Below, piece after piece: positions 2,998 to 25,454 of a stretch of 64,000 nucleotides of DNA (the stretch's first letter is position 1; every line of letters starts with the position of its first letter). The translations under genes were made by a program, and so were the position numbers. A model generated the notes under the pieces. That model made no database searches, was not told where the DNA came from, and was given only the letters and a program-made list of their open reading frames with translations. The DNA lies in assembly GCF_006345805.1 (NCBI RefSeq), contig NC_043010.1, forward strand, positions 51,336,001 to 51,400,000. Reading direction: 5' to 3'. The DNA comes from Octopus sinensis (Eukaryota).

Positions 2998-4940
2998 TTA
3001 TTTCCAAAACTTATTCAATAAAATCAATGTAGTACTAAAAATGGCGGCTCCCAAAACAAAGTAACTGATATTTTGGGGAGTGAAATGACGTTTAAAGTCT
3101 ATCTTTGAGGCAGGTTCTTCCTTTTCTTTGTTCTCTTGCTCTGCCTTTATCTGAATAGCTGCTTCAATAGCTGAGTCGACAATTTCAGAAGCAGATTTCT
3201 CTATGTGACTTCCGTGTTCATCTTTAATTAGAGATTCTTCAGATTTACTGAGGCTTTTATCTAGAATATCTTGAGAGTCAGCTTCGAATACATCAACGGT
3301 ATTCGCAGAGTCCATCACTTCAGCTTCACACTTGCTTTCAAATCCTGAATCCAAAGCACTGGCCTCTTCAGGCAAGATTTTCTGAGCCACCAAGGTAGGT
3401 GTTTCTCTATCATGTGATGTTTCAGAGAGAACTTTCTTATGCTGAGTTTCCTCGGGAACTGTAGTCTTAGTTTCAAGAGATATTTCATCCTGGAAGCCAT
3501 CTTTTGGACTCGTTTTTTCAGAATGATCCCTAGCAGTATCCCCAGACATTTGACTCTGAAATGCAGCCACACTGTCTCCTTTACTCAATTCAAATGACCC
3601 ACCAGTTTTCACTACGTTTACCTCAGAATCGCTTAAAGCATCTGATGCAATATTTTGGAAGCCACTTTCAGGAACTGTTGGCTCCAAAATTTCTGCTTTA
3701 ACATCGGAATTATCCTCGATATGGTGATCAGGTGTTGAAGTAGTCTCTACTGATGGTTTAACACTTTCTGATGGAATTTCCGAAATGGCTTTAGCAACAT
3801 TTTCAGCATCAGGTGTAATAGTTTTATCAGAGTCTTCAAGAACATCATTGGAACTTGACAATTTACTTTCTAATAAGACACTGTTTTGGTTTATGGTATC
3901 AGTTTCATTCAGTTCCTCAGCTTCTTTAGGCTTCTGTGTGTTGGAGTAAGCAAAAGGACTCGTGCTGCCGGTCTGCGGAAGTGAGGAACTGGACTTTGAA
4001 CCAGAAACAGAGTCCTTAGCAAAAAATGGGCTTGAAAGCGATGTATCAGAAGAACTACTGTTGGAATAAAAATTAGACATTTCAGGAGTTTCCTGCTTGG
4101 TAGATGATGATGACGACGATGATGATGGCAATGACTCCTTTGAGTAACTAGGAGATGTTGAATAATCTGGAGTTACCATTGAACTAATGACTGAACTTTG
4201 TGGAAGCAGTGGTGTCAAAGTTGGTGAAACAAGATTCCTATCAGATTGAAGGTCATCTCTGACGGACCAATTCTCAGGAACTTGATTAAAATTAGGGATA
4301 TTAAGTGTTGCTTCATTCCTCTGTAGAATTTTGGATTCATATTCTGTATCTTTGCTCACTTGGGACAGATCCTCACCAAACAGCTCTTCTGAAACTGCTT
4401 CTGTCTTTTGTTCATATTTACTATCGCTATCACCACCGGAAGAACTATGATTTGAGGCAGCATCATTGTAGTGAGACACATTCTTAGCATCAGTATCAAG
4501 GAAGACAGCATTTGACATGAATCTATGCTCTTCTAAATCATTATTATTGTCTGCATCAAGCGATGCAGTGTTTATTGTCTTGTTGCTGTCCAATGTATGT
4601 TTAGCATCCAGGGCACTGTCTTTACCTGCCTCGTGCTGAATATTCTGGAATTTGCTGTTGGGCAGCAAGCCAGGAGCAGAGTTTAATTTCTGCCCATCGC
4701 CTACCAGAGGTTCCATGTTATTTCCTTCGACAAATGGAACAGAGTATGGCATGTGTTCACTTACATGAGTGTTGTTCAGTACCTCTTGTGCATCCTGCAT
4801 CTTTCCAAGTGCAATTAACAAAGTATCTATATCAGATTTAGTGTGAGTAAGCCAGTTGTAAATAAGATTAACCAGAGAGCTACCTGAATCAGTTTTCAAG
4901 CTTATGTCTTCAAGTTGTGATACTTCTTCCAAACTGTAGC
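2998..4940 (-). CDS. MAVS: MAVS-like gene, last coding exon: C-terminal half of Death domain, long Ser/Thr/acidic disordered linker, C-terminal transmembrane anchor, stop
   Basis: Long ORF. Acceptor ttttatgtag|GC at 4941/4940 (phase 1). Begins GYSLEEVSQLEDISLKTDSGSSLVNLIYNWL...DIDTLLIALGKM (death-fold pattern). Ends KRHFTPQNISYFVLGAAIFSTTLILLNKFWK* (hydrophobic helix flanked by basic residues). Confidence 0.88.
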
Positions 4941-4970
4941 CTACATAAAAACAAAAAGAAAAAAGAAATT

Positions 4971-5135
4971 CCATTAATTCATCTTAAAATGCTGGATCTT
5001 TCTGAAACCTATTATCTTAAAATACTAGATTTTTCTAAAACTCACCAATTTATCTTAAAATACCAGTTCTTTTTTTAAAAACCATTAATTTATCTTAAAA
5101 TGTTAGATCTTTCTAAAACCCGTTAATTTATCTTA
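4971..5135. repeat. Degenerate ~40 bp tandem repeat, about 4 copies, next to the last-exon acceptor
   Basis: Recurring ttaatttatcttaaaat.ctagat.tttctaaaac. Confidence 0.6.
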
Positions 5136-5369
5136 CCCATTCAATTTAAAATAAAATTTTAGTAAAAAAAGGTAATCCAACAAAAGAACCACAAACTAGA
5201 CGGACACTACAAATTGTGTTCATGTCCATGAGACATTTATCAATGGTTCAGTCTGCCTAGCTATAAACAGATATCACAAACAAGTACAACACACTACCAT
5301 AGGCTGTAGTTACTGTCAGATGCCATTTTTTTATCTCTTGTTAGTTGCAAGGCGGGGATGAGAATTAGT

Positions 5370-5648
5370 CTTGTGAAGACTGAGAGATTGATCCCCTCAA
5401 AGAAAGTCTTTCTCTGGCACTTTGCATGTTTATGGAACGTCACTGAGGCAAGTGAAAAAGTTTCAGTATCTTAAAGCCATATTAAAAAATGATGGGAAAA
5501 GGAACACTGAATTGATTGCTAGAATTGCAGTTGCTGTCACAGTAGTGTGCCAACTTCTTCAATTCAGCTTTCATGCCTACCCTAAGGTCACAAATGTTGA
5601 GTAATGACTGAAAGAGTATGATTACAAATATAAGCAGCTGAAATGAGT
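5370..5648 (+). mobile_element. RTE-clade LINE reverse-transcriptase relic
   Basis: LHVYGTSLRQVKKFQYL...NDGKRNTELIARIA followed by VMTERV*LQI*AAEMS, resembling the RTE/Expander RT C-terminal region; has stops and deletions. Confidence 0.7.
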
Positions 5649-6249
5649 ATAAGGCTTGAAATTTTGTGGGGAGAGGGATAGTTGATTACCAGTTGAGCCC
5701 CATTGCTCAACTGATACTCATTTCATCAACCCCCTAAAGAATGAAAGGCAAAACTGACCTCAGCAAAATTTGAACTCAGAATGTAAAAACATGAAATGCC
5801 GCAAAACATTTTGTCTGGATGGTGAAAACCCTGATGGCAGTAGCAGCACAGAGTGGTAATGTCTTGGCAATAAATGCCAGATAATTAACAAAGCATCATA
5901 GTAACAGTGGCTGTGAAGGTAAGATGCTGACATACAGAGGTAACACATGGTAACAAAGGTTGCCAAGATTTTTGTTATATAGGACACAGTTTATCTTAAA
6001 TAGGCAAAAATAAAACAGAAAATGTTTTATACTTAAAGCATCAGCAAGGGAGCCATCTCACAACCAGATCTTAATGTCAAAGTATGTTAACATTTTTTAA
6101 AAATAAACTCCATGGAGAAAAATTTGTTGGAGAAGAGGAGTCTTTGTCTGTCTCTCTCTCTCTCTCTTGATACTCTACATCAAATGATAATCAGTAATTT
6201 TTAAAAATCTATCACCAAACTAGTTAATTAACTGCTGTGTACTTTACAA

Positions 6250-6590
6250 ATCCTGTGGAAGGACCCTGTGGAAGTGATAGATCCAGGAAAACATGAGATG
6301 AAGTGGTGAAGCATGATCTTAGGATGTTGAATTTCACAGAGGTGATAAGTGATCAAGATCTTTGGTGATTAGCTATGCTTGAGAAGATATGTCAAGTCAA
6401 GTGGAATCACAGTGGTGAATAGTAAAAGGCACCCACTACACTCATGGGGTGGTTGGTGTTAAGAAAGGCATCCAACCATAGAAACCAAGCCAAATCAGAG
6501 CAAAGCCTGGTACAGCTCTCCAGCTTATCAGCCTGTCAAACTATCTGACCCACACCAGCTTGGAAAATAGACACTAAATGATGGTGATGT
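6250..6590 (+). mobile_element. RTE-like LINE 3' end (ORF tail plus 3'UTR ending in GAT repeats)
   Basis: EGPCGSDRSRKT*DEVVKHDL, similar to the GRPRKTW motif, followed by the aaaagcacccactacactc...gatgat tail. Confidence 0.6.
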
Positions 6591-6651
6591 GTATTTTACC
6601 AATACAAAACTATAACTGATCAATGACCAAAATCATTTGCTGTAAACATAC

Positions 6652-6876
6652 CAAGATGTAAAGCCAACAGTCTCCAGCTTTCAGGGTATTCTTGGTCCAA
6701 TCGTTTCAGGGGCCCAAGTAGGTTTGGTAGAATGGATTCCCATTTAGATTCATCTGGAATACTCCACTGTCTGCTCACCTCGTTTTGCAGTGATTTGTAA
6801 GTATTTTTATAGTAGTTATTATTATTTTTCCCACAGCTGTACTTGTTACTAAAATGGTAATTCTTAGACACCAGAT
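6652..6876 (-). CDS. MAVS: MAVS-like gene, internal exon: linker and N-terminal half of Death domain
   Basis: Acceptor tttccag|AT, donor G|gtatgt, 225 nt, phase 1 to phase 1. Encodes (D)LVSKN...LKRLDQEYPESWRLLALHL(G); WRxLAxxLG is a Death-domain hallmark. Confidence 0.88.
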
Positions 6877-7559
6877 CTGGAAACAAAGAAAGGTAAATCA
6901 TGATCAATTTTTTTTTGTTTTCATAGCAAAAGGACTTTAAAAAAACATACTGAAAAGGAAGAAAAGACTACATGGGAAAAAAACACAATTTGGGTTCTAA
7001 AAGAAAGAACAAAAGTGGATATGTTGGGTAGAAGTGATATGCTGCTCTCACAAGAAGAGTAGAAGCCAGTGATAAAATAATTTGTCTTTACCATTCAGTC
7101 CAATAGCATTTTTTGTCTAGTTTAGGGTGTTTATATGCAGCAAGCTGGCAGAATAGTTAACATGCTGGGTCAAATGCTGAGGCCAACTTAGCCTTTCATT
7201 GTTTCAGGGTCAATAAATTAAGTGCCAGTCGAGCATGGGATGAGCAATATAATTGACTTAACTACTCTTGGGTATGAGTATAAAAAACAAAAGAAAAAAA
7301 AGACTGCATCAATCTGCCAAGCCATGTCAAGCCAGAATGACAGAGTAGGTTCATCAAACCAATATGATTTCAAGCTCAAATTCACAGCTTCCATGCCAGA
7401 CTATGTTTGGTGGGGTGCACAGGCTGAGACCTTCATCTTGCAGTAGACTGAACGTAGGCAATCCAATCCAATCCAATCTAATCTAAAATGCAGTAGTAAT
7501 ATCAATGTCCAAGATGTTGGGGGTAATGTTTCATTGGAGTAGCAATTTATTAATATTCT

Positions 7560-7855
7560 CTAGCCTTGGGCCGACCAAAGCCTTGTGAGTGGATTTGGTA
7601 GACGGAACTAAAAGAAGCTCATTGTATATATGTATATATGTGTGTGTGTGTTGTGTGTGTGTGTGTGTCCCCTGCAACATCACTTGACAACTGATGCTGG
7701 TGTGTTTACGTCACTATAACTTAGCGGTTCAGCAAACGAGACCGATAGAATAAGTACTAGGCTTACAAAGAATAAGTGCTGTGGTCGATTTGCTCGACAA
7801 AAGGCGGTGCTCCAGCATGACCACAGTCAAATGACTGAAACAAGTAAAATAGTAA
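7560..7855 (+). mobile_element. SINE family A, 5'-truncated
   Basis: ccaaagccttgtgagtggatttggtagacgg...(TA)n(TG)n...gctccagcatg.cc.cagtcaaatgactgaaacaagtaaaa. Confidence 0.8.
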
Positions 7856-8709
7856 GTGTAATTCATAATCTCTATGGCATGTCTTACCTAATGTCACTCT
7901 ATATCCCACAGCTATCTTAGTTTTGTAAGAATTACTAAATAGTTAATAAGATGAGTTTGACAATTGTCATGAGGCATAAAGGAAAAGCAAAGTTGAACTT
8001 GGCAAGGTTTGGAATCAGAATATAAAGGGGTATACCTGGTGTTCTATCAGTTCTCTCATTTGCTACTATGACAATGCTAAGGGCAGAGTAACAACAGCTG
8101 TCACACTCAGAGCAAGCAAATTCACCCTGTCCACTTTCATTCCTGTCACTATCAGAATCTCAAGGCATACAAAAGGTGACTGAACAGTGGAGAATGTGCA
8201 ACCTGGGTGGGCTACTAAGTTGCACCACTGCATGCAATTAACTTGTGTATGTAGGTCAGGAGTAGTATGATTGTCTATGCTAGGTGGAAGCATGGCATAT
8301 TGAGAACAACAGGTCTGTGAGTTAATATCTAGTCATTCAGCCAACCACCTGCATGCTGTATATGTGTACATGATCAAAAGCTGATATGGAACTCTACAAT
8401 AACAATAGATAAGACAATGTTGAGAGAGCAACAACAAGTCCAGACTGTCAGTGAACCCCATACAGATTAATTACTGTTTACGGAAATACCCAGTATTTTA
8501 TTTTATTATTTCTTTTTTTCATTAATTAATTTGGGAGAAAAAAAAAAGTAATGTGGCTTTGTGGTAAGTAGCCGATAGAATAAGTACTAGGCTTACAAAG
8601 AATAAGTCCTGGGGTCGATTTGTTCGACTAAAGGCGGGGCTCCAGCATGGCCGCAGTCAAATGACTGAAACAAGTAAAAGAGTAAAAGAGAGAATAGAGA
8701 TAAACTCAC

Positions 8710-8878
8710 CTTCTTGGGACCGTTTCACTTTCTCAGCTAAGTCAGGTAGGTTGATGCTGGAACTGAGTAAAGCTTCAGCTAGTCTCAACTGCCAGTGCTC
8801 ACTTGATGCAAGATGATGAAGTAAACTATTCACAGCAGCCTCGTTCCCTTTAATTTCATATTCCAGTTCAATTTGATC
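8710..8878 (-). CDS. MAVS: MAVS-like gene, internal exon: C-terminal half of CARD (absent from the ORF track)
   Basis: Acceptor ttttcatag|GAT, donor G|gtgagt, 169 nt, phase 0 to phase 1. Translates DQIELEYEIKGNEAAVNSLLHHLASSEHWQLRLAEALLSSSINLPDLAEKVKRSQE, matching by eye the MAVS/RIG-I-type CARD pattern (GN..A...L...L.....W......AL......DLA..V). Confidence 0.85.
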
Positions 8879-8921
8879 CTATGAAAAACAGGGATTCATT
8901 TGCCTATTTTAGAACAATTAA

Positions 8922-9141
8922 CCCTTTAATATTCAGAGTACTCCATAAAATTTAATGCTTTTTGATTCACACTGTTTTGAAGTAATCATGCATTATCTTG
9001 TAGCTTTAAGATTTTGATGATGTGGTTGCTTATTTTTAGAATGACATTGTAGGGTAGGTGTGAGAGGCTGAATATGGCCAGTCTGAACATAAAACAAGTA
9101 GAATATTTGGGTCGGAAACGGCCGGTTTAAAAACTAAAGGG
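8922..9141. mobile_element. piggyBac-like MITE
   Basis: TTAA|CCCTTTA ... TAAAGGG|TTAA; related copy at 1982-2195. Confidence 0.7.
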
Positions 9142-9615
9142 TTAAACACTACATACAGATGGGGTATGCATGGCCCATACAAACAACTAGACGAGATGTA
9201 CCTACATTTATTGTAGTGATATCAAAGTTCTTCATTCATGAAATACCAAAACACAAAAGAAGTTGCATTAGTATCAATGGCGGTGCCTCACTATGACTAG
9301 AGCCCTATCAGTAAAAGAAAGTGTTGTGTCATTATGTGTGTGTTTTAATTGGCACAAGTTTTGAAGTGACTGAAAGGATGAGAGTTTTGCCCCTGAAACT
9401 CTTGGCTTTTGAGACTTAACTGACTTTTCAAAAGTCAAAATATGTATGATGGAACCTGATAAAACCAAGGTCAGTCTTAGGTTGGTGGGTTTCAAAAGGG
9501 GTTAAGGTAAAAGCAAAGTTTTGTTGTTTTTCTTTCAATAAGAATTGAAACAATGATCCTGTGATTAACAGGATCACTGCTTTTAAACTATTTTTCACAG
9601 TAAGATGAAATATAC

Positions 9616-9983
9616 TCTTTTACTTGTTTCAGACATTTGACTGTGGCCATGCTGGAGCACCACCTTTAGTCGAGCAAATCAACCCCAGGACTTATTCTTT
9701 GTAAGCTTAGTACTTATTCTATTGGTCTCTTTTGCTGAACCACTAAGTTAAGGGGTCATAAACACACCAGCATCGGTTGTCAAGCGATGTTGGGGGGACA
9801 AACACAGACACACACACATGATGGGCTTCTTTCAGTTTCCGTCTACCAAATCCACTAACAAGGCTTTGGTCGACTCGAGGCTATAGCAGAAGACATTTGC
9901 CCAAAGGTACCACGCAGTGGGACTGAACCCAGAAACATGTGGTTGGTAAACAAGCTATTTACCACACAGCCACTCCTATGCCT
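9616..9983 (-). mobile_element. SINE family A (tRNA-derived head, CORE-like segment), near full length
   Basis: Reverse complement of the 20975-21381 pattern. Confidence 0.85.
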
Positions 9984-10624
9984 ATATAACTAAATAACTT
10001 TTTTGATTCCCATTTTTTTTCATTAAAATCTTAACTTTTCTGCTTTATATTATTATTTCATAAATGCACAACATATTAGAATGCTAGAAAAAAAAAAAAG
10101 AAAAATATTATTATTATTATTATTAGAATATTTACTTTATTTGCCCATTTTTCTCATTCAGTTTCTCTGTTATTGTAAAGCTGGATATAGCTGTTGCCAG
10201 TTCTATTGTATTTACCTTGCTATGTAATATGGTGAAGTGGTCTGGTTGAATAAGTTAGTCGGGCGGGGGGTGGGGGGGGGGTATGTTGCCACATCAATAT
10301 AATGGACCTGGGCAGAATTCATACACAACTTCGCAGTAACAAAGAAATTAATAAGGTAAAAATAAACGGGGGGGGGGTAGGATGTGAAATGAAATATGAA
10401 CTGCAGCTTTCAACAATGAATGCGAAATAATACACACACACACACACACAAGCATATGCAAATGTACACACACACACATAAATACATATACACACAAACA
10501 AATCTTCACACACATATATATACATGCATACACAATCACATGCATGCTTATACACACAAAGATATAAGCCTCCACTCACATACACACACACTCAATAATT
10601 TTTGAGGTACATGCCATCCGACTC

Positions 10625-10920
10625 GTGGCCGATGCCAGCACCGCCTCGTCTGGCTTCCGTGCCGGTGGCACATAAAATACACCAATCCGACCGTGCCCGT
10701 TGCCAGCCTCGCCTGGCACCTGTGCAGGTGGCACGTAAAAAGCACCCACTACACTCACGGAGTGGTTGGCATTAGGAAGGGCATCCAGCTGTAGAAACAC
10801 TGCCAGATAAGACTGGAGCCTGGTGCAGCCTTCTGGCTTCCCAGATCCCCGGTCGAACCGTCCAACCCATGCTAGCATGGAGAACGGACGTTAAACGATG
10901 ATGATGATGATGATGATGAT
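10625..10920 (+). mobile_element. RTE-like 3'UTR fragment with (GAT)n tail
   Basis: ggcacgtaaaaagcacccactacactc...ttaaacgatgatgat. Other copies near 13450-13663, 21418-21612, 23695-23885 (-) and 30487-30617 (-). Confidence 0.75.
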
Positions 10921-10955
10921 GCCAATGATAATATTTTGCCTCTTTATTTAAAAAT

Positions 10956-11275
10956 GGTCAATACCAATGCTCCCTGACTGGCTCCCGTTCCAGTGGCATG
11001 TGAAAAGCACCATCCGAACATGGTCGATGCCAGTGTTCCCTGACTGGTTCCCGTGCCAGTGGCATGTAAAAAGCACCATCCGAACATGGTCGATGCCAGT
11101 GTTCCCTGACTGGCTCCCGTTCCAGTGGCATGTGAAAAGCACCATCCGAACATGGTCGATGCCAGTGTTCCCTGACTGGCTCCCGTTCCAGTGGCATGTG
11201 AAAAGCACCATCCGAACATGGTCGATGCCAGTGTTCCCTGACTGGTTCCCGTGCCAGTGGCATGTAAAAAGCACC
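10956..11275 (+). repeat. 66-bp tandem repeat, about 5 copies, inside an RTE-like 3'UTR that continues to ~11432
   Basis: Unit ggtcgatgccagtgttccctgactggctcccgttccagtggcatgtgaaaagcaccatccgaacat starting at 10956, 11022, 11088, 11154 and 11220. Confidence 0.9.
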
Positions 11276-12030
11276 CACTACACTCTTGGAGTGACTGGCA
11301 TTGGGCATCAAGCTATAGAATCATTGCCAGATCAGATTGGAGCTTGGTGCAGCCCACTGGCTTGCCAGACCTTAGTCAAACCGTCCAACTCATGCCGGCA
11401 TGGAAAGTAGATGTTAAATGACGATGATGATGTTTGTACTGTTTATCAGTTCACTTGCTCCATCAAATTGATGTTGCCTGAACAACAAATCAAAGGTGCC
11501 ATGCAGTGGGACTAAACCCAAGAGTACGTGGCTGGGAAGAAAGCTTTTTGGCCACATAGCTACGCCTTTTTATCTGGCCTTCTTTTTTTCTTTTCACGAT
11601 CCTTTTTGATCAGAATTGCCCCACCCCCACTTTCTTTTTTCTTTTTTTCTCCTTCTCGACTTCCCAAAAAGAAAAGCTCTACTTTGTATTTTGTCTCTTC
11701 TGTGTTCAGCCCTGCATGGCTAATAAAGACATCTATCTAGATACAAAAAACAAAAAACAAAAAAAAAAGGGACAATAGTCATGGCTAGACTGTCTTTGAT
11801 CATGTGTTAATACATGAAGATACTGAATTATCTTCATATCAGATACAGTGTCTAAATGACTGCAGAAACCCTTTTGGATTGACAACTGTTTCATTAACAA
11901 AACCCATACAAGATTATGAAACAAAAAAAGGGGGGGGGGGGGGTAACAACAACAAATAAAGGGGGGGTAACAACAACAAATAAAGGGGGGGGGATAACAA
12001 CAACAAATAAAAGGGGTAAATGTACCAAAC

Positions 12031-12153
12031 TTTAATATCGGTTGATATACAACTCTCCAGTTCCTGTATAAGGACCACTGCAGGCACACACTCCTGTAGT
12101 TCTGCTGTCACTTCTTTCAGAAAGTCTCTGGTTTCTTTAGTAAGTGTCTCAGG
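12031..12153 (-). CDS. MAVS: MAVS-like gene, internal exon: N-terminal half of CARD
   Basis: Acceptor ttttttatcttccag|CCT, donor AAA|gtttgg, 123 nt, phase 0 to phase 0. Encodes PETLTKETRDFLKEVTAELQECVPAVVLIQELESCISTDIK, in frame with the next exon. Confidence 0.8.
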
Positions 12154-12494
12154 CTGGAAGATAAAAAATGTTGTAAGGGTAACAATATACAGAGGCAATA
12201 CTGAAAACATGTAATCACAGTATAAACACAACACCACCAACAATAAACAACACAACTGACAGTAGACAACACAACAGGTTTTAAACAATACAATGAGCAA
12301 TGAACAGCACAATGGACTGTTAACAACATAATGAACAGTGAACAATACAACAGGCAGTAAAAATTGCAATGAACAGTAAACAATGCAATGAACAATAAAC
12401 CCATCCCAATCACATTGCAAACAATGAAATGAACCCACTTTTATGCCTGGTGCTTTCCTATCAGTCTCTTTTGCTGAACCACAAAGTTGTTGTT

Positions 12495-12797
12495 GTTTGT
12501 TCCTTCTTGAGCCACACCTGGCTCATAGGGCCGGTTTCCCGGTTTCCTTGGCATATAGGTTTCCCCACCTGGACGGAACGCCGGTCCATTGCAGGTGAGC
12601 TGCAAGATGCAGGAGGAAAGAGTGAGAGAAAGTTGTGGTGAAAGAGTCAGCAGAAGTTTGCCATTACCTTCTGCCGGAGCCGTGTGGAGCTTAGGTGTTT
12701 CACTCATAAACATGCACATCGCCTGGTCTGAGATTCGAACCTGCAATCCCTTGACCGTGAGTCCACTGCTATAACCACTAGGCCATGTGCCTCCACG
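12495..12797 (-). mobile_element. SINE family C (tRNA-derived)
   Basis: Minus-strand head ggaggcacatggcctagtgg...ggttcgaatc. Relatives at 16033-16275 (+) and 45415-45700 (-). Confidence 0.75.
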
Positions 12798-13661
12798 AAC
12801 CACAAAGTTACAGGGACACAAACACACCGATACCGGTTGTTAAGCAGTGACAGGAACAGACACAGACACATACAAATGTACGTATGTGTGTGTGAGAGAG
12901 AGAGAGAGGCTTCTTTCAGTTTCTGCCTACCAAATCCACTCACAAGGCTTTGGTTGGCTCGAGTCTATAGTAGAAGACAGTTACCCAAGGTACCACCATG
13001 TGGTTGGGAAGCAAACTTCTTATTTCTTTATTTCCCATAAGGGGCTAAACAGAGGGGACAAACAAGGACGGACAAAGGGATTAAGTAGTTCGGCAAAAGA
13101 GAAAACACCATGCAGACTGCAACAGTCAATAAAACAGAAACATAGTTTAAAAATTTATTCTTTCAGTGAGTCCCAGTACCAAATAATCCATGGCCCAGGG
13201 TTGGGACCTGTCAGAGCATTATATATTGCAATATAGAGCAATGCTCCGCAACCACTTTTTCACTTGCAGTACACTTATATTCTTTTCAAAATTCGGTGGC
13301 ACACTTGAACTAAAAGCATAAAACTAAAAGCATAGGGCAAAAAAAAAATTATACTCAGGTTACACTGCGGCACACTGGTTGTGGAGAACTGGCATAGAGG
13401 CAGTAGTATACTATGATAAAGCATTTTAATAGTACTGTACAAATTTCGTGGCCGTTCGCCAGCTCTGTCTGGCACCTGTGCAGGTGGCACGTAAAAAACA
13501 CCCACTACACTCGCGGAGTGGTTGGCGTTAGGAAGGGCATCCAGCCGTAGAAACACTGCCAGATCTGACTGGGCCTGACGAAGCCTTCCAGCTTCACAGA
13601 CCCCAGTTGACCCGTCCAACCCATGCTAGCATGGAAAGCGGACGCTAAATGATGATGATGA

Positions 13662-14017
13662 TGATAAACGGCAAAATGTCTGCGTGTGTGTCCTTTATAC
13701 AAATCCACAATTTTTCAGTTAGAGGGCTTGCACTTTCTATGGTCATTCAAATCCGTCCAAGGGTGGTCATGCACATCTTTACATTTCCCCAGTCACCCCG
13801 TAAAGCCATTAAAAAAATCAATAGAAGTGACTTTTTTGTGAATTTTCTATCCAAAACTCAATCAAAATGCCCGAAACTTGATATGCCAATTGAACGCCAG
13901 CTAGCTGTATGTGATTGGTCGGAGATTTGGACAGTACTCGCGTGTATGTGCACACGCACGCAGCTGTATATGCATGCACTAGCACTATGACCTGGCGTTG
14001 CCGGGTCATAGTGCTAG
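13662..14017 (+). mobile_element. Non-autonomous Helitron-like element, family 2
   Basis: Ends in a GC hairpin and CTAG followed by T; near-identical copy at 30043-30391. Confidence 0.65.
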
Positions 14018-14614
14018 TAGCATATAATAGTATAGTGTAATGTACAAATGTACTATTTATATAATACAACACACATTAGCAAGAAGATCACATACTTAAA
14101 TAACCTCTTGAACCAGAATTAATAAGATAAAATCAATATAAGCTGATAGACAACTGAATATGAATACATAAATATATTAATATACATAATACTTACATAT
14201 ATATCTATCTTAATATACATACATATATGCATACACACACACACACATATATATATATGTGATTTTATAACGCACTATATATATATATATATATGTATAT
14301 ATATAAGAAAACCAAAAAATACTAAGTCTATTTGTTTGTGTGTGTGTATACATACATATGTATTTGTGATTATCAAGTAATTACTAATCCAACTAAGAGG
14401 ACAGATAATTCCTTTGAGAGTTTACATAATCTGTTTTATATAAGACAAACATTCACCATTTGTGTGTGTGAATACCAATCAGCTAAATTATTCCATTCTT
14501 AGAATCAACAAGGGAGCCTCTAAGCAATTGTCAGGCTCACTAGAAATACCACCACCTAAATTTCCCTTCCTTGATTTTATAACGCACTATCTCAAAAATA
14601 AATAAATTAATAAA

Positions 14615-15270
14615 TCTCTCTATATATAAAGCTGAAGTTGTCTGTGTGTGGCAGGTTTGGTAGCCTTCAACTAACACTATCTCCCCCGAGACCCTGCGGC
14701 GCAAGTTGACCAAAAGTGAGAGTATGATAGAAGAAGGCTTGCTCTTCCTTCCGTAGAAGAAAAAATTCAAATCGGACCATGTTAACACCAACAATTATTT
14801 ACATCAAAAAGGTGCTTTTTTTCTATGAAAATCCCTATTTTTACGATTTTTTTACTGCTGTGTCGCCATTTTTCGGTGTATTTCAACCAGAGAAGTGTTG
14901 CTCGGGTTTGTTTCGACCCTTTAGAATTGGAATTTTTGAAAAGTAAAAATTTTGCCTTATGTAGCTTGTTATTCTCTTTAAGTGAACATTTTTCTGGTTG
15001 AAATACACCGAAAAATGGCGACACAGCAGTCAAAAACTCATAAAAAATAGGGATTTTCATAGGAAAAAAGCACCTTTTTGATGTAAATAATTTTTGGTGT
15101 TAACATGGTCCGATTTGAATTTTTTCTTCTACGGAAGGAAGAGCAAGCCTTCTTGTATCATACTCTCACTTTTGGTCAACTTGTGCCGCAGGGTCTCGGA
15201 GGAGATAGTATTAGTTGAAGGCTACCAAACCTACCATACACAGATAACTTCAGCTTTATATATATAGAGA
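14615..15270. mobile_element. Two non-autonomous Helitron-like copies (family 1) fused tail-to-tail, forming a long inverted repeat
   Basis: Both outer ends read TCTATATATAAAGCTGAAGTT. Arms ~14617-14897 and ~14987-15270. A monomer with both termini is at 50765-51325. Confidence 0.75.
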
Positions 15271-15984
15271 TGTATGTGTATACGTATGTGTGTGTAAAAT
15301 AAAACAACATTAACAAACAAAAAAACAAAAGTAAAAGCCCACGGTTATGTCACTCACATGCTTGTTCATGATGACTGATAGTGTTGTTGCTATTGTTGTT
15401 CAATGTTAGTTGGTTAGTTTTTGAGGTGAAGAGGAGGAAGAAGAAGAGTTGTAGAGAGTTAAAGTGATGAAGATAGACCGCAAAAAGGTTAGGGCAAAAG
15501 TTCAGGCCAGCAGCGGCGGCAATGAGCAGGTTGCTGTTGTTATTGTCAGAAACAATAACATCAACAATGGTAGCTGCAACAGTAATGTAAAACTGTTAAT
15601 GAGGAATGCTTCAGAGAAAATTAGCAAACAAACAAATAAATAAATAACAGATTAATTAGGTAAATAAACAAATTAATACGCAGTCAGTGCGAAGGAAAAA
15701 GTTGAGAAGGGTGGGGCGCGGAGAAGAGTTTAGAAATTACACAAGCAAAAGTGCTGAACAGGCAAAAGATCAGTGAGCAAATGCAGGTGTGTAGACGTGG
15801 CTTTGTGCTTGATAAGCTTGCTTTGCAGCTGTGTGGCTTGGGGTTCAGTGACATTAGGTGGCACCTTGGGCGAGTGCATTCTATGACAGACCCAGGGTGA
15901 CCAATGGTTTGTGAGTAAAATTGGTAGGTGAAAACTATGTGGGATCCTGTCATATAATCAGGAATCTTGCAAAATGAATTGATA

Positions 15985-16032
<48 letters not shown>

Positions 16033-16033
<1 letters not shown>

Positions 16034-16275
16034 GGAGGCGCAATGGCCCAGTGGTTAGGGCAGCGGACTCGCGGTTGGAGGATCGCAGTTTCGATTCCCA
16101 GACCGGGCGTTGTGTGTGTTTATTGAGTGAAAACACCTAAAGCTCCACGAAGCTCCGGCACTCTTCTTCCTGTTTCTTGAGTAACGCTGCGATGGACTGG
16201 CGTCCCGCCCAGCTGGGGAGAACACATATGCCATAGAAACCAGAAACCGGGAAACTGGTCCCATGAGCCTGGCTT
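16033..16275 (+). mobile_element. SINE family C (tRNA-derived)
   Basis: ggaggcgcaatggcccagtggttagggc...gtttcgattcc (A/B-box-like). Confidence 0.75.
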
Positions 16276-16629
16276 TTCAGCCTCCACCTCGTATATATTC
16301 ATACAATGGACTTCAATTTGTTTTTCTGTCTACCAAATTAACTCACAAGGCTTTGGTTGGAGTGGAGCTATAATAGAAGACCCCTTGCCTAAGGTTCTGT
16401 TCAGATGGAGTGAAGCCGAGATGACATGGTTGGGAATCAAACTTCTTAACCACAAAGCCATGCTTGCACCTATTAACACACACACATACAAATAAATATA
16501 ATCATCATTTAACATCTGTATTCTATACTGGCAGAGGCTGGATGGTTTGACAAGATCAGACTAGAGGACAGCATTAGGCTCTAATGTCTGCTTTGGCATG
16601 GCTTATCTCTATATTTATAGCCCTCTTCT

Positions 16630-16946
16630 GTCTCTCTCTCTCTCATGTGTATGTGTGTGTGTGTGTGTGTATAGATATTATTGTACATATATATATATAT
16701 ATATATATGTATGTATATATATCTGTGTGTGCATATATAGATATATATATATACATATATATATGTATGTGTGCATATATATATATATATATATCTGTGT
16801 GTGCATATATATATATACATACATACACGCATATATATATACATACATGCATATATATGTATATATTATATTAATATATATCTGTGTGTGTGTATATATA
16901 TATGTATGTATATATATGTGTGTGTGTGTGTGCATGCATATATGTA

Positions 16947-16982
<36 letters not shown>
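16630..16982. repeat. Compound (TA)/(TG) microsatellite
   Basis: Directly visible. Similar tracts at 23140-23420 and 28095-28615. Confidence 0.95.
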
Positions 16983-16984
<2 letters not shown>

Positions 16985-17536
16985 ATTAAGCTGTTAAGCT
17001 AGTGAAACTGATCAAGTACCAAACTTCTGCTAGATGATATCAATACAAAAACAGAGACCGAATAGATACAGTGAAGGATAGGATTACAATTTTAGAATAT
17101 ATTGTTTCAGAGATGGATGTCATCAAGGTTGGCACAAAAAAGTAAAGAATTGTTGTTGTTGTTTAACTCTGGGTCAGCCCTGATGAAGCAAACCTATGAT
17201 TAAAGGTATTCCAGCCATGACCATCCCATCTTTTAGAGTGGAGTGCCAAAAGAGATTTTTAGGTTTTATTTAAAGGCCATTCCTTTTCGGATGTATGCTT
17301 GCAGAGAGATATTACATTTGTTTGCAGGGAGTTATTACATTTCCTGGTAACCCTCTTTTAGAGCTTACAACTCTTGGTAACTTGGAGAGAAAAGTAAGGT
17401 ATACCAAGGGATCTATGCCCATTATTATAAAAATCAGTTATTTCATTAAAGTTACAAACAAAACGTGATTGTAACCAGGGTTTATCAGGATAAAGAAAGT
17501 CACCCTAAGCCTTGAAAAACAGAACCTCAACTTTAT

Positions 17537-18015
17537 CAGTTCTGTATTTAAGAGATGAGGAATTATGTACATTATTTACGTTCGACGGTTATTTGTCCTC
17601 ATCTTGCTTGTTGTTAACACAACGTTTTGGCTGATATACCCTCCAGCCTTCATCAGATGTCTTGGGGAAATTCCAAACCTGGGTTCTCATTCCTAAGGTA
17701 CTTTTCGATATTATTATTATTATTGTTGTTCAGATCACTGCTTGCTTGGAATTGAACTTGGAATCTTGGGGTTAGTAGCCCATGCTCTTAATCCCAAGAT
17801 TCCGAGTTCAATTCCAAGCAGTTACCTGAACAACAACAACAACAATAATAATAATAGTAATAATAACAATAACAACCTCGAAAATACCTTAGGAATGAGA
17901 ACCCAGGTTCGAAATTTCCCCAAGACACCTAAAGAAGGCTGGAGGGTATATCAGCCGATTTGTTGTGTTAACAACACATAAGATGAGGACAAATATCCGT
18001 CGAATGTAAATAATG
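17537..18015. mobile_element. Head-to-head inverted dimer of a tRNA-headed, hammerhead-bearing element (Penelope-associated)
   Basis: Arms 17570-17770 and 17792-18015. Flanking 11-bp direct repeat CTCAACTTTAT. Hammerhead-like motif in each arm. Confidence 0.7.
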
Positions 18016-19399
18016 CTCAACTTTATAATCATAGTACTTACATCTACTTTCTATGCTGGCATGGGTAAGAAGAGTCATTACAGTTTGAACTAGCTCTCAT
18101 TCAGAGTTTATTGTCCTAAATGGGTTGGGAGAGAATTTATCACCAAAACATTATTAACCTTTTGCCTAACCTGTGTATCATATGTGACACACAGGACATA
18201 TTTTGTTGGTGTCATGCATCAGATATGACACACTTTCCCAATTTCTTTTCAACCACTGCAGTAATTTGAGACTTATGAAAAGGAAGGCTTTATATTACTC
18301 AGAACGTATGAAACAAGGACTAATTTAAAAGTCTTCAAATAAAGAAGTTTAGGATAAACTTACTAAGATGCTTTGGACAAATGGTTAAATATGGCAGGGT
18401 ATCTACAATGAGGTGTCCTTTCTATCACTAATCACTTTACAGAGCTTACTAAGAACATTTTATTTTGGGAGCAGTAATAGAGAAGTTATGTCCTCCACAA
18501 GACAAGACTAAGGGACTTCATGAACCGGCACTGTCTTCACTTATTTGCCAAATGTTCAATTTCTCCCTCTTGGGGTTCGTAGTCTTGTCAGCTGCACAGT
18601 AACCTCATTAGCGTTGGTGACATGGAAAATGCACTTAGTACACAATGTAAAGTGGCAAGTACTACGAAAGGCATCTAACCACAGAAACCATGCTGAAGTA
18701 GATACTGGCCCACAATGCAGTCCTTGGACCCATGGACGTTAAATGATGATGATGATGATGAGCATTTAGGATCATGTTATGCAATGTCCCCCTGCCCACT
18801 TTTTTAAGAAGGAGGATGTAATTTGAGGGTGTTTGGTTGCAGTTTCTAGAAGGCTGACTGCATGAAGGCTCTCTCTCACTGACATGTTAGTTGTAATGTA
18901 TGGAGGTAATGATAGAGTGGGAGTGTTTAAAACAGCCAATGGTTGTGCAGGGCCAGAGGTGCAAAGGCAAAGTTCTAATTTGGAAGTAAGAAACAGGTCA
19001 TGCAAATTGGGTATGGATGAATGGTTGCTGGAAATGAAAAGTTCTGTATAGGGAGAATGGCAAAGAATTTTGCTTTTGCACCGTTTGAGCCAACATGAGA
19101 GAATAACGAAGGTTACAGATCAAAGAAGAGTGTTACAATAGGTAGATAAGCAGTTATTAAATTCTAGAGAAGAGCTACAGCTAAAACTAGTTATTAAACA
19201 AACACTAGAAAAATGGCTGGGAGGAATAGGTGAATGAATATTAAGTGAACACTTCAGAATAACTGAACAATGAACAGCTAGTGAATACTTTAGGAACATG
19301 CAGTGAAAATTTAGTGAACAGAACCTCAGCTAAAACCAGTTATTAAACAAATACTGGAGAAGTAGAGGTGAGGAATAGGTGAACATTTAGTGACAATTT

Positions 19400-20180
19400 C
19401 AGAATAATTGAACAATATATGGTCGGTGAACACTTCTGAATTACTGAACAATACATGGTCGGTGAACACTTCTGAATAACTGAACAATACATGGTCGGTG
19501 AACACTTCTGAATAACTGAACAATACATGGTCGGTGAACACTTCTGAATAACTGAACAATACATGGTCGGTGAACACTTCTGAATAACTGAACAATACAT
19601 GGTCAGTGAACACTTCTGAATAACTGAACAATACATGGTCAGTGAACACTTCTGAATAACTGAACAATACATGGTCAGTGAACACTTCTGAATAACTGAA
19701 CAATACATGGTCAGTGAACACTTCTGAATAACTGAACAATACATGGTCAGTGAACACTTCTGAATAACTGAACAATACATGGTCAGTGAACACTTCTGAA
19801 TAACTGAACAATACATGGTCAGTGAACACTTCTGAATAACTGAACAATACATGGTCAGTGAACACTTCTGAATAACTGAACAATACATGGTCAGTGAACA
19901 CTTCTGAATAACTGAACAATACATGGTCAGTGAACACTTCTGAATAACTGAACAATACATGGTCAGTGAACACTTCTGAATAACTGAACAATACATGGTC
20001 AGTGAACACTTCTGAATAACTGAACAATACATGGTCAGTGAACACTTCTGAATAACTGAACAATACATGGTCAGTGAATACTTCTGAATAACTGAACAAT
20101 ACATGGTCAGTGAACACTTCTGAATAACTGAACAATACATGGTCAGTGAACACTTCTGAATAATTGAACAATACATGATT
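19400..20180. repeat. 36-bp minisatellite, about 21 copies
   Basis: Unit gtgaacacttctgaataactgaacaatacatggtc(a/g); no spacers. Confidence 0.97.
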
Positions 20181-20974
20181 AAAGAACACTTTATAAACAT
20201 TTAGTGAACAACTTTCATAGACAGCAATACAAATTACTAGAACACATTTCACACATATGCAATAATCATTTAAATTTAGCGATCATTCTAACAAAAATTT
20301 GAAATGGTATACATTGTTAAAGCGTTTTGAACAACTAGTAAACACCTGTAGTTGACAGTTAATAAACATTTTAGAATAAAGCCAGCGGGGAAGCATCATT
20401 CAAATGTTACAACAATGAAAGGAATCTGTTCGGAGACCAGAAGAAAGTTGTAAATTCATTAACTGATGATTAATACACACACAGCTTATACTTGTACTAC
20501 TACTACTACTAGAACAATAAAAACATAGGCACGGGCATGGTTGTGTGATCCAGAAGCTCACTTTGCAACCATGTGGTTTTGGGTTCAGTCCCACTGCATA
20601 GAACCTTGGGTAAGTTTCTTCTACATGGCCTCAAGCTGACCAAAGCCTTGCGAGTCAATTTAGTGGATGGAAACTGTGGATGCACATCATGTGTGTGTGT
20701 GTGTCTGCATATATAAATAAATATATAGATATACAGTAGGGGCCATAATATAAGGGTCAGTAAGAACAAGTGTATTGAAATAGTTATTATAGAAGATTAA
20801 CAACACATTGAGACTTGATATTTTACACATATTTAGATATATCTAATATCTACCTTTCGTAAAAATTTCAAGTGAATGGAATAAATATTTTGTAAGTTAT
20901 GAGGAAATAAACAAATAATCTTCTAAACTGCAATGGCCAAAAGTTAAGGGTCACTTAGAAAAAAATGAACTACT

Positions 20975-21381
20975 AGGAGTGGCTGTGTGGTAAGTAGCTT
21001 GCTTACCAACCACATGGTTCCGGGTTCAGTCCCACTGCATGGCATCTTGGGCAAGTGTCTTCTGCTATGGCCCCGGGCCGACCAATGCCTTGTGAGTGGA
21101 TTTGGTAGACGGAAACTGAAAGAAGCCTGTTGTATATATGTGTATATATATATATATGTATGCGTGTGTGTGTTTGTGTGTCTGTGTTTGTCCCCCAAGC
21201 ATTGCTTGACAACCGATGCTGGTGTGTTTACGTCCCAGTCACTTAGCGGTTCGGCAAAAGAGACTGATAGAATAAGTACTGGGCTTCCAAAGAATAAGTC
21301 CTGGGGTTGATTTGCTCGACTAAAGGTGGTGCTCCAGCATGGCCGCAGTCAAATGACTGAAACAAGTAAAAGAGTAAAGAG
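20975..21381 (+). mobile_element. SINE family A, full length
   Basis: ggagtggctgtgtggtaag...gggttcagtccc (A/B boxes), cttgggcaagtg CORE-like segment, internal (TA)n(TG)n, gtaaaagag tail. Confidence 0.9.
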
Positions 21382-21871
21382 TACTAACCAAGCTATTTGT
21401 TGTTTAAAAGACATAACTGTGCCGGTGGCATGTAAAAAGCACCCACTACACTCTCGGAGTGGTTGGCGTTAGGAAGGGCATCCAGCTGTAGAAACTCTGC
21501 CAAATCAAGATTGAAGCCTGGTGCAGCCATCTGGTTCGCCAGCCCTCAGTCAAAATCGTCCAACCCATGCTAGCATGGAAAGCAGGTGTTAAACAATGAT
21601 GATGATGATGATGAATGGGCTAATCTTATTTTACAGGTTATCCAACATCCTTATTAATGCCAGTGGCATGAAAGAAAACCATATAAGTCAAAGACATTTA
21701 TGCAATGTTTGTTGAATCCTTTTTTTAAGAAAGTAGGGTGTGATTTGAAGCATATTTTGCTTCTATTTCTAATCTGTTGATCAAGCACATAAGGGCAGCC
21801 AGTTGTCGGCGGCAGGTGACTTATTCCAAGTTATTCTGAACTGTGTTCTTCACCTGTACTACTGTAGAAAA

Positions 21872-22083
21872 TACTCTTTTACTTGTTTCAGTCATGTGAC
21901 TGTGGCCATGCTGGAGCACTGCCTTTAGTCGAGCAAATCAACCCCAGGACTTATTCTTTGTAAGCCTAGTACTTATTCTATCGGTCTCTTTTGCCGAACC
22001 ACTAAGTTACGGGCACGTAAACACAGACACACACACACATGTATATATATATATATATATATACATATACATACATACATATA

Positions 22084-22114
<31 letters not shown>

Positions 22115-22277
22115 CTACGACGGGCTTATTTTCAGTTTCCGTCTACTAAATCCACTCACAAGGCTTTGGTCGGCCCAAGGCTATAGTAGAAGACACTTGC
22201 CCAATGTGCCACGCAGTAGGACTTAAACCCGGAACCATGTGGGTGGTAAGCAAGCTACTTACCACACAGCCACTCCT
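21872..22277 (-). mobile_element. SINE family A, inverted relative to 20975-21381
   Basis: Reverse-complement match, ~490 bp from the plus-strand copy. Confidence 0.88.
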
Positions 22278-22769
22278 TGGCGATGTACTTTATATGAATG
22301 ACCTTGGATAGCATGATTGTGGTTAATAATACTCAATTTGAAACATCACTAAGTTACCGGCTGGTTTAGCAGGTGTGGGATATTTATTGATGGTAGTAGA
22401 AGGTGGGGAGAGAATGGAATGAGAAAATGATGTTTAAGGAGAAATGAGGAGTCAGGAGAGGGGGTGAGACATGTATTTGGAGCAAAGAGTTTAGTTTAGA
22501 ACGTGTTGCTGTTTAAACCCCAGGACAGACCCGTGGAAAAAAAAGACATTTCAGCTGTGTCTATCTCACCTACGCAGTTCAATGTATCTTTTTAGAGATG
22601 GTTGGGTCCAAGCTGAGATAAATTTAGTTTCTATTCATAGCAGGTTGAGCAACTGCGTAGACACCCCATCATTGGTTCATGTTTAAAAAAGAATGTCTGA
22701 GAAGTGAGACACAATGGAAGAGAGGGATGAAGGGGAGGAAAGGGCAGCTGAGGAGGAAATATATGGGTG

Positions 22770-23085
22770 TTGTTTTGGAAGTTGGTGGTGGTATGGTGAT
22801 GAAGATGATGATGATGACGATGGTAGTAATACCGATGGTGGTGGTGGCATTAGTCATGATCATGACAATGGTGAGGATGGTGGTAGTGGTGTGTTACTGT
22901 GCTGAGCATGCTAATAATGGTAGTGGCAGTAGTGATGGTGATGGTGGTGGTAGTGGTGAAGGTGGTGGTAGAGGTGATGAAGGTGGTGGCAGTGGTGGTG
23001 ATAGTGATGATGGTGGTGGTGGTGAGTAGCATAAAGTCAGTATGTATTGAAAGTGGGTGGTGGTGGTTGGTAGTGGTGGTGATGA
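22770..23085. repeat. Degenerate (GGT/GAT)n low-complexity tract
   Basis: Directly visible. Confidence 0.9.
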
Positions 23086-23342
23086 AGCCTGAACAACTCT
23101 CTACCTGGCAGGTGGCTTTACATTTTTTGGATGCAGTCCAGAATGTGTGTGCGTGCGTGTGTGTGTGTGTGTGTGAGTGTGTGTGTGTATAATATCCTGG
23201 ATATATGAACAGCACTCTTAATGTATAGTTATTGTTTAACAAGTGTGTGTGTGTGTGTGTGTGTACATGTAACTGCATTTATTTACAAACACACACACAG
23301 TGTATGTTTGTATATATGTGTGGGTATATGTCTGTGTGTGTA

Positions 23343-23412
<70 letters not shown>

Positions 23413-23883
23413 CACACACACTCATCTATCTCTAGTCAGACACACATGCACATTTTTATATTTATATTTTGTGTGTATTTATATTTATACACACACAATA
23501 AAGATATAAAATAAAGCATGGACAACTACAACCTTCATTTTGTCCTTCACTGAAGACAACAGGGCAAAGTCAGCCCCCATTGGTGGATACCACTGGTAAA
23601 CTTACTAGAAAAATAGTAGCCTGGCATTGATGCATGCATGTGTGAATATGCGCTATATGCAAACGTGTGTATACACATATATAAACAATTGCGTATCATC
23701 ATCATCGTTTAACATCTGCTTTCTATGCTAGCACGGGTTGGACGATTTGACTGAGGACTGGTGAACCAGATGGCTGCACCAGGCTCCAATCTGATCTGGC
23801 GGAGTTTCTACAGCTGGATGCCCTTCCTAACGCCAACCACTCCGAGAGTGTAGTGGGTGCTTTTACATGCCACCGGCATGAGG

Positions 23884-24298
23884 GCCAGTCTGGCAGTACT
23901 GGCAACGGCCAGTCTGGCAGTACTGGCAACGGCCAGTCTGGCAGTACTGGCAACAGCCAGTCTGGCAGTACTGGCAATGGCCAGTCTGGCAGTACTGGCA
24001 ACAGCCAGTCTGGCAGTACTGGCAACAGCCAGTCTGGCAGTACTGGCAACGGCCAGTCTGGCAGTACTGGCAACGGCCAGTCTGGCAGTACTGGCAACGG
24101 CCAGTCTGGCAGTACTGGCAACGGCCAGTCTGGCAGTACTGGCAACGGCCAGTCTGGCAGTACTGGCAACGGCCAGTCTGGCAGTACTGGCAACAGCCAG
24201 TCTGGCAGTACTGGCAACAGCCAGTCTGGCAGTACTGGCAACAGCCAGTCTGGCAGTACTGGCAACAGCCAGTCTGGCAGTACTGGCAACGGCCAGTC
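23884..24298. repeat. 24-bp minisatellite, about 17 copies, abutting an RTE-like 3'UTR
   Basis: Unit gccagtctggcagtactggcaac(g/a). Confidence 0.95.
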
Positions 24299-24729
24299 TT
24301 TTACTTGTTTCAATCATTAGACTGTGGCCATGCTGGGACATCACCTTCAAGAATTTTGGTTGAATGAATCAATCCCAGTATTTCTTTCTTTTTATTTTTT
24401 TTTAAGCCTGATACTTATTACCTATTTCTTTATTGCCCACAAGGGGCTAAACACAAAGGGGACGAACAAGGACAAACAGATTAAGTTGATTACATCGACC
24501 CCCAGTGCGTAACTGGTACTTAATTTATCGACCCCCAAAAGGATGAAAGGCAAAGCCCACAGATAATTTTTTCACTATAGACCTTAATGGTCATAAAGGC
24601 ACTATATCAGTGGATAGATTAAAAAAGGCCTTCATAGAGAAAACTGTCCCTGTTCCCACTGCAGACGACACACACACACAGCATTACAAACACGGCCCGC
24701 TCACCCACCTTCACATTCCATGACTACCA

Positions 24730-25409: not shown

Positions 25410-25454
<45 letters not shown>

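Follow-up and report, generated by a model that had tools for sequence, protein, structure and literature searches.

A CARD, death-domain and tail-anchor gene of Octopus sinensis as a probable octopod orthologue of bivalve-type MAVS

Our analysis concerns a gene on the minus strand of a 64,000-nucleotide (nt) stretch of the Octopus sinensis genome (contig NC_043010.1, positions 51,336,001 to 51,400,000; the window below), which encodes a CARD, a death domain, a long linker and a C-terminal tail anchor and which, judging from its sequence, is probably the octopod orthologue of bivalve-type MAVS, the adaptor of the RIG-I-like receptor (RLR) pathway. As our searches did not retrieve the oyster and scallop MAVS proteins characterised so far, we base the orthology on this architecture together with one uncharacterised bivalve relative, whose model has no transmembrane (TM) segment. 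An earlier note made from the letters of the window had read the gene as the RIG-I/MDA5 adaptor; the CARD type, the death domain, the tail anchor and the bivalve layout bear this reading out, whereas the alignment with human MAVS and the TRAF motifs that were also offered for it do not. Public records misname the gene: the protein models compared here are a 900-amino-acid (aa) protein from Octopus vulgaris (P0005), filed as 'dentin sialophosphoprotein-like isoform X2', an 823-aa protein from O. bimaculoides (P0006), filed as 'Death domain-containing protein', and a partial model of 1437 aa from Argonauta hians (P0007).

The type of the CARD carries much of the argument. The Pfam family CARD_2 (PF16739) matches P0005 with 33.2 bits (residues 86 to 163) and P0006 with 31.7 bits, against a cut-off of 28.2, and the generic CARD family (PF00619) gives no match at E ≤ 10 in either protein, in keeping with the RIG-I/MAVS-type CARD proposed earlier. 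When the four exon pieces were compared with Pfam singly, that of exon 2 was the one to find a match, again to CARD_2 (20.5 bits). As a calibration, six other CARD exons of the genome all matched both CARD models, four of them favouring PF00619 (51 to 71 versus 28 to 40 bits) and two favouring CARD_2, one of these two being an RLR-linked CARD. An hhalign comparison of the three-sequence alignment A2 with four CARD exons of the genome gave nothing significant; only the RLR CARD was aligned CARD to CARD in register (E = 0.15 over 44 columns, nonsignificant).

The same genome holds eight further CARD_2 matches and one RIG-I_C-RD match. A gene on the plus strand of contig C2 carries, in this order, CARD_2 (50.6 bits), DEAD/ResIII (in two exons), Helicase_C (42.9 bits) and RIG-I_C-RD (70.8 bits) and is, by its predicted domains, a canonical CARD-bearing RLR. 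A genome search with PF18119 (RIG-I_C) gave no match and its controls were silent as well, which makes it uninformative. Two likely remains of mobile elements accompany the RLR gene (L018:1582-2130 and L023:2491-2841): some 3.5 kb ahead of its CARD exon lies a Pif1 2B-domain open reading frame (ORF), and the gene itself contains a fragment of a reverse transcriptase. Elsewhere in the genome, four generic CARD exons (PF00619, 58 to 71 bits) lie within 67 kb at G000:C24:4966172-5033170 (L003 to L006); L005 and L006 have identical CARD ORFs and L008 (C11600) a nearly identical one, which suggests a recently duplicated CARD gene family.

Homology searches placed the gene in a wider, if sparse, context. 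Word-indexed protein searches returned octopods only, that is, two of 8000 candidates with the exon 4 product, three of 2855 with residues 1 to 250 (which added the Argonauta model) and three of 8000 in a further search. A HMMER scan of 1,835,955,588 representatives with profile A2 gave four matches at E ≤ 0.001: two octopods, an unnamed 74-aa CARD fragment (P0008) corresponding to the half that exon 2 encodes (E = 9.7e-6), and a hypothetical protein of 463 aa from the bivalve Solemya velum (KAL5022594.1, P0009; E = 3.6e-5). The Solemya protein is the only identified non-cephalopod protein at this threshold, and it matches query positions 52 to 239 in one stretch, from the CARD through the death domain. 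Pfam assigns it CARD_2 (59 bits) and Death (50.3 bits), and in a BLASTP comparison with P0006, 230 residues align colinearly at 25% identity (pairwise E = 6e-10). As a side observation, P0008 and P0010, both from Logan contigs, contain an open frame of 74 to 142 aa that corresponds to the CARD half encoded by exon 2 (..IKHEGNKLAVETILNQL..WPLQLYHALLSPSINRPKLARKL) and probably represents this exon in a more distantly related cephalopod or mollusc.

Against the PDB, the Solemya protein alone gave 32 matches, consisting of 6 RIG-I and 9 MAVS CARD sequences and 17 death domains. A joint profile of the octopod rows and this bivalve relative (A3) gave 26 matches, namely 10 RIG-I CARDs (best E = 2.6e-10), one MDA5 CARD (1.5e-5), 8 MAVS CARDs (2.1e-4), 5 death domains (best 1e-4, p75NTR) and two unrelated structures. 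The best RIG-I E-value is about 10,000-fold better with the joint profile than with the Solemya protein alone, which indicates that the octopod rows add to the RLR/MAVS-type signal and do not dilute it. The earlier note had named grouping of the CARD with caspase, RAIDD or NOD families as an outcome that would speak against it; among the PDB matches of the joint profile, all 19 CARDs belong to RIG-I, MDA5 or MAVS and none to CRADD, caspases, Apaf-1 or NOD proteins.

Behind the CARD lies a death domain, as had been proposed. Pfam Death (PF00531) matches residues 243 to 302 of P0005 with 19.9 bits (E = 8e-4) and P0006 with 19.6 bits, both below the curated cut-off of 22.6, and further support comes from the p75NTR match of the joint profile and from the colinear alignment to the Solemya death domain. 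The expected single C-terminal tail anchor is also present: the last 23 residues hold the sole strongly hydrophobic window of the protein, with the highest 19-residue Kyte-Doolittle mean (1.78) and all five best windows, between the basic flanks KIDFKRHF and KFWK, and the segment is kept in Argonauta. Tail anchors of the mitochondrial outer membrane typically combine moderate hydrophobicity with basic flanks. The death domain and the anchor are joined by some 520 linker residues, of which Ser makes up 18%, Glu 9.7%, Asp 8.3% and Pro 5.6%, and within this linker short islands are kept in Argonauta (SLDADNNNDL, NLVSPTLTP..MVTPDYSTSP, EDSDK, DHSE..TSPK and EKSASEIVDSAIEAA).

Several observations weigh against the identification as a MAVS orthologue. 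(i) The characterised oyster and scallop MAVS proteins are not among the four matches at E ≤ 0.001 in the scan of 1.84 billion representatives, and the Solemya model has no terminal TM or hydrophobic segment. (ii) Neither the octopod sequence nor a profile built from octopods alone picks up a CARD in the PDB at E ≤ 10, the weak matches being p75NTR death domains (E = 0.07 to 1.6); the by-eye alignment of the CARD with human MAVS in the earlier note is left with no direct statistical support, and it is by way of Pfam CARD_2 and the bivalve relative that the protein connects to the CARDs of RIG-I and MAVS. (iii) With the joint profile, RIG-I CARDs outscore MAVS CARDs. (iv) Language-model look-alikes of residues 1 to 245 are headed by CRADD-type CARD-plus-Death clusters (0.83 to 0.84), with a MAVS-like cluster in 16th place (0.78), and those of residues 1 to 102 are generic CARD clusters (0.85 to 0.87), all of these scores lying below the 0.9 lead threshold and serving as leads only. 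(v) The linker is rich in serine and not in proline, and the proposed TRAF sites PDESKW, PKEAEE and TKQE occur at chance frequency: with the usual consensus patterns, there are two TRAF6-type motifs, where 2000 shuffles average 1.04 and 28% of them reach two, and three TRAF2/3-type motifs, where the shuffle mean is 4.05, and none of the five is kept in Argonauta (0/2 and 0/3, respectively). PDESKW itself sits at the start of the conserved death-domain block, from about residue 215 of P0005. (vi) The pLxIS motif (searched as [polar]LxIS) is absent from P0005 and P0006, which confirms for Octopus what the earlier note had seen. (vii) The long isoform carries 60 to 80 repeat residues before the CARD, unlike described MAVS proteins, and the spliced contigs discussed below carry a frame-shifting donor. 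AlphaFold2 on alignment A2 reached a mean pLDDT of 40.5 and a pTM of 0.26, too poor to use.

The order of CARD and death domain, the top-ranked look-alikes and the presence of several generic CARD exons in the genome would all fit a membrane-tethered apoptosis adaptor of the CRADD/RAIDD kind, in which the CARD would recruit a caspase that has a CARD of its own and the death domain would pair with that of a PIDD-like protein or a receptor, with no role in RLR signalling. We consider this quite unlikely: the CARD scores above the CARD_2 cut-off and has no PF00619 match, neither the 26 PDB matches of the joint profile nor the 32 of the Solemya protein include a CRADD or caspase CARD, and the octopod protein continues for some 580 further residues to a tail anchor, both absent from CRADD. 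CRADD itself is soluble, measures roughly 200 aa and has neither linker nor anchor, and its likeness to the octopod protein of 823 to 900 aa ends with a CARD and a death domain within about 245 residues.

A second alternative starts from the death domain, which is the best-conserved part of the protein (69/98 identical residues between Octopus and Argonauta, compared with 20/41 in exon 1, 36/56 in exon 2 and 174/443 in the linker) and whose nearest solved relatives are those of p75NTR, MyD88, IRAK3 and Pelle. Together with the higher scores of RIG-I over MAVS CARDs, this would suit a death-fold scaffold of another innate pathway, for example that of MyD88, IRAK/Pelle-like kinases or TNFR-type receptors, with a CARD_2 domain derived from an RLR-like ancestor and since uncoupled from RLRs. 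Such a scaffold seems unlikely to us, as a CARD_2, Death and tail-anchor layout is that of the MAVS proteins shown by experiment in oyster and scallop (PMC5557890, PMC9879056), and as a CARD-bearing RLR is encoded in the genome.

Returning to the gene as a MAVS-type adaptor, its coding structure is firm over most of its length (Table 1). Four exons, with borders read by hand and the pieces translated, join into 2460 nt (819 codons plus stop); the three introns (3152, 1833 and 1711 nt, in order) are all GT-AG, and each acceptor consists of a pyrimidine tract followed by AG. The spliced product is 99.0% identical to P0005 (815/823) and 91% to P0006 (748/822), and the junctions DIK/DQIE, SQE-D-LVS and HL-G-YSLEE are common to all three octopod models. 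The DNA of exon 2 has a single match in the 2.72-Gb genome. The four-exon model of the earlier note, with its phases, splice sites and 819 aa, therefore holds as far as the exons themselves are concerned, given these shared junctions and the contigs for introns 2 and 3 described below; what did not hold is its completeness, as it is truncated at the 5' end, and its intron 1 donor, which differs in the spliced contigs.

Exon 1 opens directly behind an acceptor AG and contains no ATG, so the four-exon model is cut short at its 5' end. Two starts come into question. A candidate first coding exon for MNKH, which matches the N-terminus of the O. bimaculoides model, lies within the window and gives an 823-aa ORF; among the contigs of the four sequencing runs described below, no piece is listed at its position. 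For the 5' exons of the P0005 type, tblastn found none in the 64-kb window, and we also examined 80 kb adjoining the window end, where a 31-nt exon and, farther out, a 30-nt tandem-repeat exon were found. The latter is the first coding exon of the long isoform, with an ATG at the start of each 30-nt unit, and the long-isoform exons with the in-frame donor yield an 890-aa ORF from the ATG at L011:1514; in this assembly, a 2-nt difference puts the units farther upstream out of frame. The AG directly before exon 1 in both spliced contigs fits the AAG end of the 31-nt exon, not the CAT end of the MNKH exon. The repeat region varies among octopods, with seven in-frame units in O. vulgaris P0005 and six in this genome, and in the Argonauta model the CARD is preceded by an acidic repeat region of another kind, which exceeds 600 aa.

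Contigs of four sequencing runs were mapped on positions 2600-16700 of the window. The run type is unrecorded, and two runs, X1 and X15, were taken as RNA-type solely because their contigs skip three introns. The spliced contigs are X1 record 1 (2700 nt) and X15 record 6 (3317 nt), each from a different study. Both consist of pieces at 12155-12025, 8877-8710, 6876-6651 and 4939-2796/2829 that adjoin one another in the record and contain 0 to 3 other letters; a one-base G ambiguity at the piece borders has no effect on the result. Both reach into the 3' untranslated region, as far down as 2796. The contiguity of the pieces confirms the acceptor of exon 1 together with introns 2 and 3. In the large DNA run X18, contigs cross the exon-intron borders unspliced (6470-7220, 8671-8945, and 4134-4998 with 5032-5631), and the spliced form occurs in none of the listed DNA contigs. 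Run X6 had no long piece on the gene, and uncovered parts were not taken as evidence.

Of the junctions predicted in the earlier note, those of introns 2 and 3 and the exon 1 acceptor are thus found in contigs, whereas the predicted intron 1 donor is not. In both of the two listed spliced contigs, the donor is TTG/GTACAT at 12026/12025 instead of AAA/GTTTGG, with the acceptor unchanged, which adds five bases to exon 1 and differs from the junction in all three octopod protein models. This +5 donor shifts the frame inside the CARD: translation that begins at MNKH ends after 62 residues, and the frame that would keep exon 2 open meets a TAA at 12034-12032. That both contigs have the frame-shifting donor, and that the in-frame 12031/8878 junction was not seen in RNA here, is among the points against the gene as a MAVS-type adaptor; assembled contigs keep one path, and they show the presence of a junction and not its absence. 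The consensus donor is MAG/GTRAGT, and both intron 1 donors are weak by comparison.

Table 1. Features of the gene, with positions counted from the first letter of the window unless a locus (L010, L011) is given; a slash marks a splice border.
Feature	Position	Strand	Details
Exon 1	12153-12031 (content 12031..12153)	-	123 nt, phase 0/0; ORF-keeping donor AAA/GTTTGG at 12031/12030; N-terminal CARD half, PETLTKE...STDIK
Exon 1 acceptor AG	12155-12154	-	confirmed by spliced contigs
Five extra bases GTTTG	12026..12030	-	X1 record 1 and X15 record 6, exact over 12155-12025 (131 nt)
Exon 2	8878-8710 (content 8710..8878)	-	169 nt, phase 0/1; donor AAG/GTGAGT; C-terminal CARD half, DQIELEYEIKGN...KRSQE; covered by spliced contigs
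Exon 3	6876-6652 (content 6652..6876)	-	225 nt, phase 1/1; donor TTG/GTATGT; inter-domain spacer and start of death domain; covered by spliced contigs
Exon 4 (last coding)	4940-2998 (content 2998..4940)	-	1943 nt including TAA (3000-2998), phase 1/stop; death domain remainder, linker of about 520 residues, conserved helix EKSASEIVDSAIEAA, tail anchor, stop codon
Pfam Death match span	4795..6685	-	coded by 6685-6652 and 4940-4795, intron 3 between
Tail-anchor TM segment ISYFVLGAAIFSTTLILLN	3013..3069	-	followed by KFWK only; top Kyte-Doolittle window
Candidate alternative first coding exon (MNKH)	15369-15358	-	ATG AAC AAG CAT/GTGAGT; matches N-terminus of O. bimaculoides model
31-nt exon	L010:6839-6809, about 6.8 kb past window end		borders acag/GGCAGAGG...TCGAAG/gtaagt; encodes (M)AEEPRISSSK
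30-nt tandem-repeat exon	about L011:1689-1333, about 11.3 kb past window end		units MSLPVHTVED; repeat array L011:1251-1689 (G000:C14)
Part of the intron of about 58.7 kb of the long isoform	12154..64000	-	5' exons found beyond window end

Taken at face value, the donor in the two contigs, found in two separate studies, the stop after 62 residues and the TAA in the frame that would keep exon 2 open would fit a mostly non-productive locus, where the prevailing mRNA makes little or no CARD protein and the gene is decaying or yields CARD-less products only. We regard this as highly improbable, given that exon 1 is open and conserved in the CARD frame in three octopods (40/41 residues shared with O. 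bimaculoides and 20/41 with Argonauta, where the linker reaches 39% identity), that the entire frame of 823 to 890 aa is intact, and that contigs keeping a single path cannot show the other junction to be absent. What sets this gene apart is its +5 donor and the repeat exon that precedes the CARD. We speculate, as a tentative and rather doubtful proposal, that the choice of splice site inside the CARD may gate the octopod adaptor, with the +5 donor as the default leading to an early stop, only the weak upstream donor giving a CARD-bearing, filament-competent protein, and the variable repeat exon capping the CARD.

The introns contain several repeats. A 66-nt tandem repeat in intron 1 (10954-11275; 4.9 copies, 94% matches) is open in several frames and produces artefactual ORFs of 109 to 152 aa. 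Farther upstream, two short-period arrays at 19398-20191 and 23723-24368, one of them a tandem array of 22 copies of 36 nt with 98% matches, give ORFs of up to 318 aa in several frames; these are repeats within the large intron, not genes. Summed contig depth is very high in all four runs at 7310-10135, 10607-11077, 12491-13903 and 15788-16258, and these bins hold recurring ORF strings such as ..FDCGHAGAPP..; the two features together point to a high-copy dispersed repeat family across the introns.

A CARD-Death-TM layout has been published for bivalve MAVS (PMC5557890, PMC9879056, PMC11103948). The oyster protein CgMAVS has a death domain in place of the proline-rich region, binds the RIG-I CARDs and TRAF6 and self-associates in a TM-dependent manner (PMC5557890), and the scallop protein CfMAVS, which has the same three domains, binds a TBK1/IKK-epsilon-like kinase (PMC9879056). 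Among invertebrates, MAVS-dependent RLR signalling has been demonstrated in bivalves only (PMC5557890, PMC9879056). MAVS was reported as not found in Aplysia and abalone (PMC9334734, PMC11103948). For cephalopods, the literature records that the RLRs of O. bimaculoides are expressed (PMC8998645) and proposes a RIG-I response in the symbiosis of the bobtail squid with Vibrio, naming no adaptor (PMC7665748). Among the papers listed by our literature searches on MAVS in cephalopods, including octopus and squid, none describes a cephalopod MAVS; in those examined, the term is confined to a list of abbreviations, background passages or cited references. Papers on octopus dentin sialophosphoprotein, the name in the public record, were also searched for, and none was relevant by title or abstract. 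CARD-Death-TM MAVS is known from bivalves, and the cephalopod member is new relative to that literature.

The comparison with known systems brings out both likeness and difference. Like the bivalve proteins (Crassostrea gigas CgMAVS, KY630189, and Chlamys farreri CfMAVS, OM069740), the octopod protein has an N-terminal CARD, a death domain, a linker and a C-terminal TM segment, with a CARD-bearing RLR in the same genome. Unlike them, it is longer (823 to 900 aa, and 1437 aa in the partial Argonauta model), has a linker rich in Ser, Asp and Glu, and carries repeats before the CARD in its long isoform; the octopod profile did not retrieve CgMAVS or CfMAVS. Solemya KAL5022594.1 shares the colinear CARD_2 and Death domains but is only 463 aa long and ends without a hydrophobic segment. 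With vertebrate MAVS (IPS-1/VISA/Cardif), the octopod protein has in common a CARD of the CARD_2 family, a tail anchor at the C-terminus and, between the two, a long disordered stretch. The joint profile matches MAVS CARDs (best E = 2.1e-4), with no direct pairwise significance to the octopod sequence; vertebrate MAVS has no death domain, which in the octopod protein stands in place of the proline-rich region, the octopod linker is not proline-rich, and Octopus has neither a conserved TRAF motif nor pLxIS.

If the gene acts as its relatives do, its product would be held by the tail anchor in the outer membrane of mitochondria, and perhaps in that of peroxisomes, where RNA-bound RLR CARDs would nucleate the assembly of the adaptor CARD, as the family suggests. 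The death domain and the conserved linker islands would then recruit TRAF6 and a TBK1/IKK-epsilon-like kinase and lead to IRF/NF-kB, as in oyster and scallop MAVS, and this recruitment would not use pLxIS docking of the vertebrate kind. Through the alternative donor, 5 nt farther on in the CARD exon, less CARD-bearing protein would be made.

The finding suggests that the CARD-Death-TM form of MAVS predates the split between bivalves and cephalopods. Should the splice gate and the repeat cap prove true, they would amount to a post-transcriptional safety catch on a prion-like immune switch, an arrangement undescribed for animal MAVS in the literature searched. A concrete candidate with its exon structure makes the RLR pathway of cephalopods testable.

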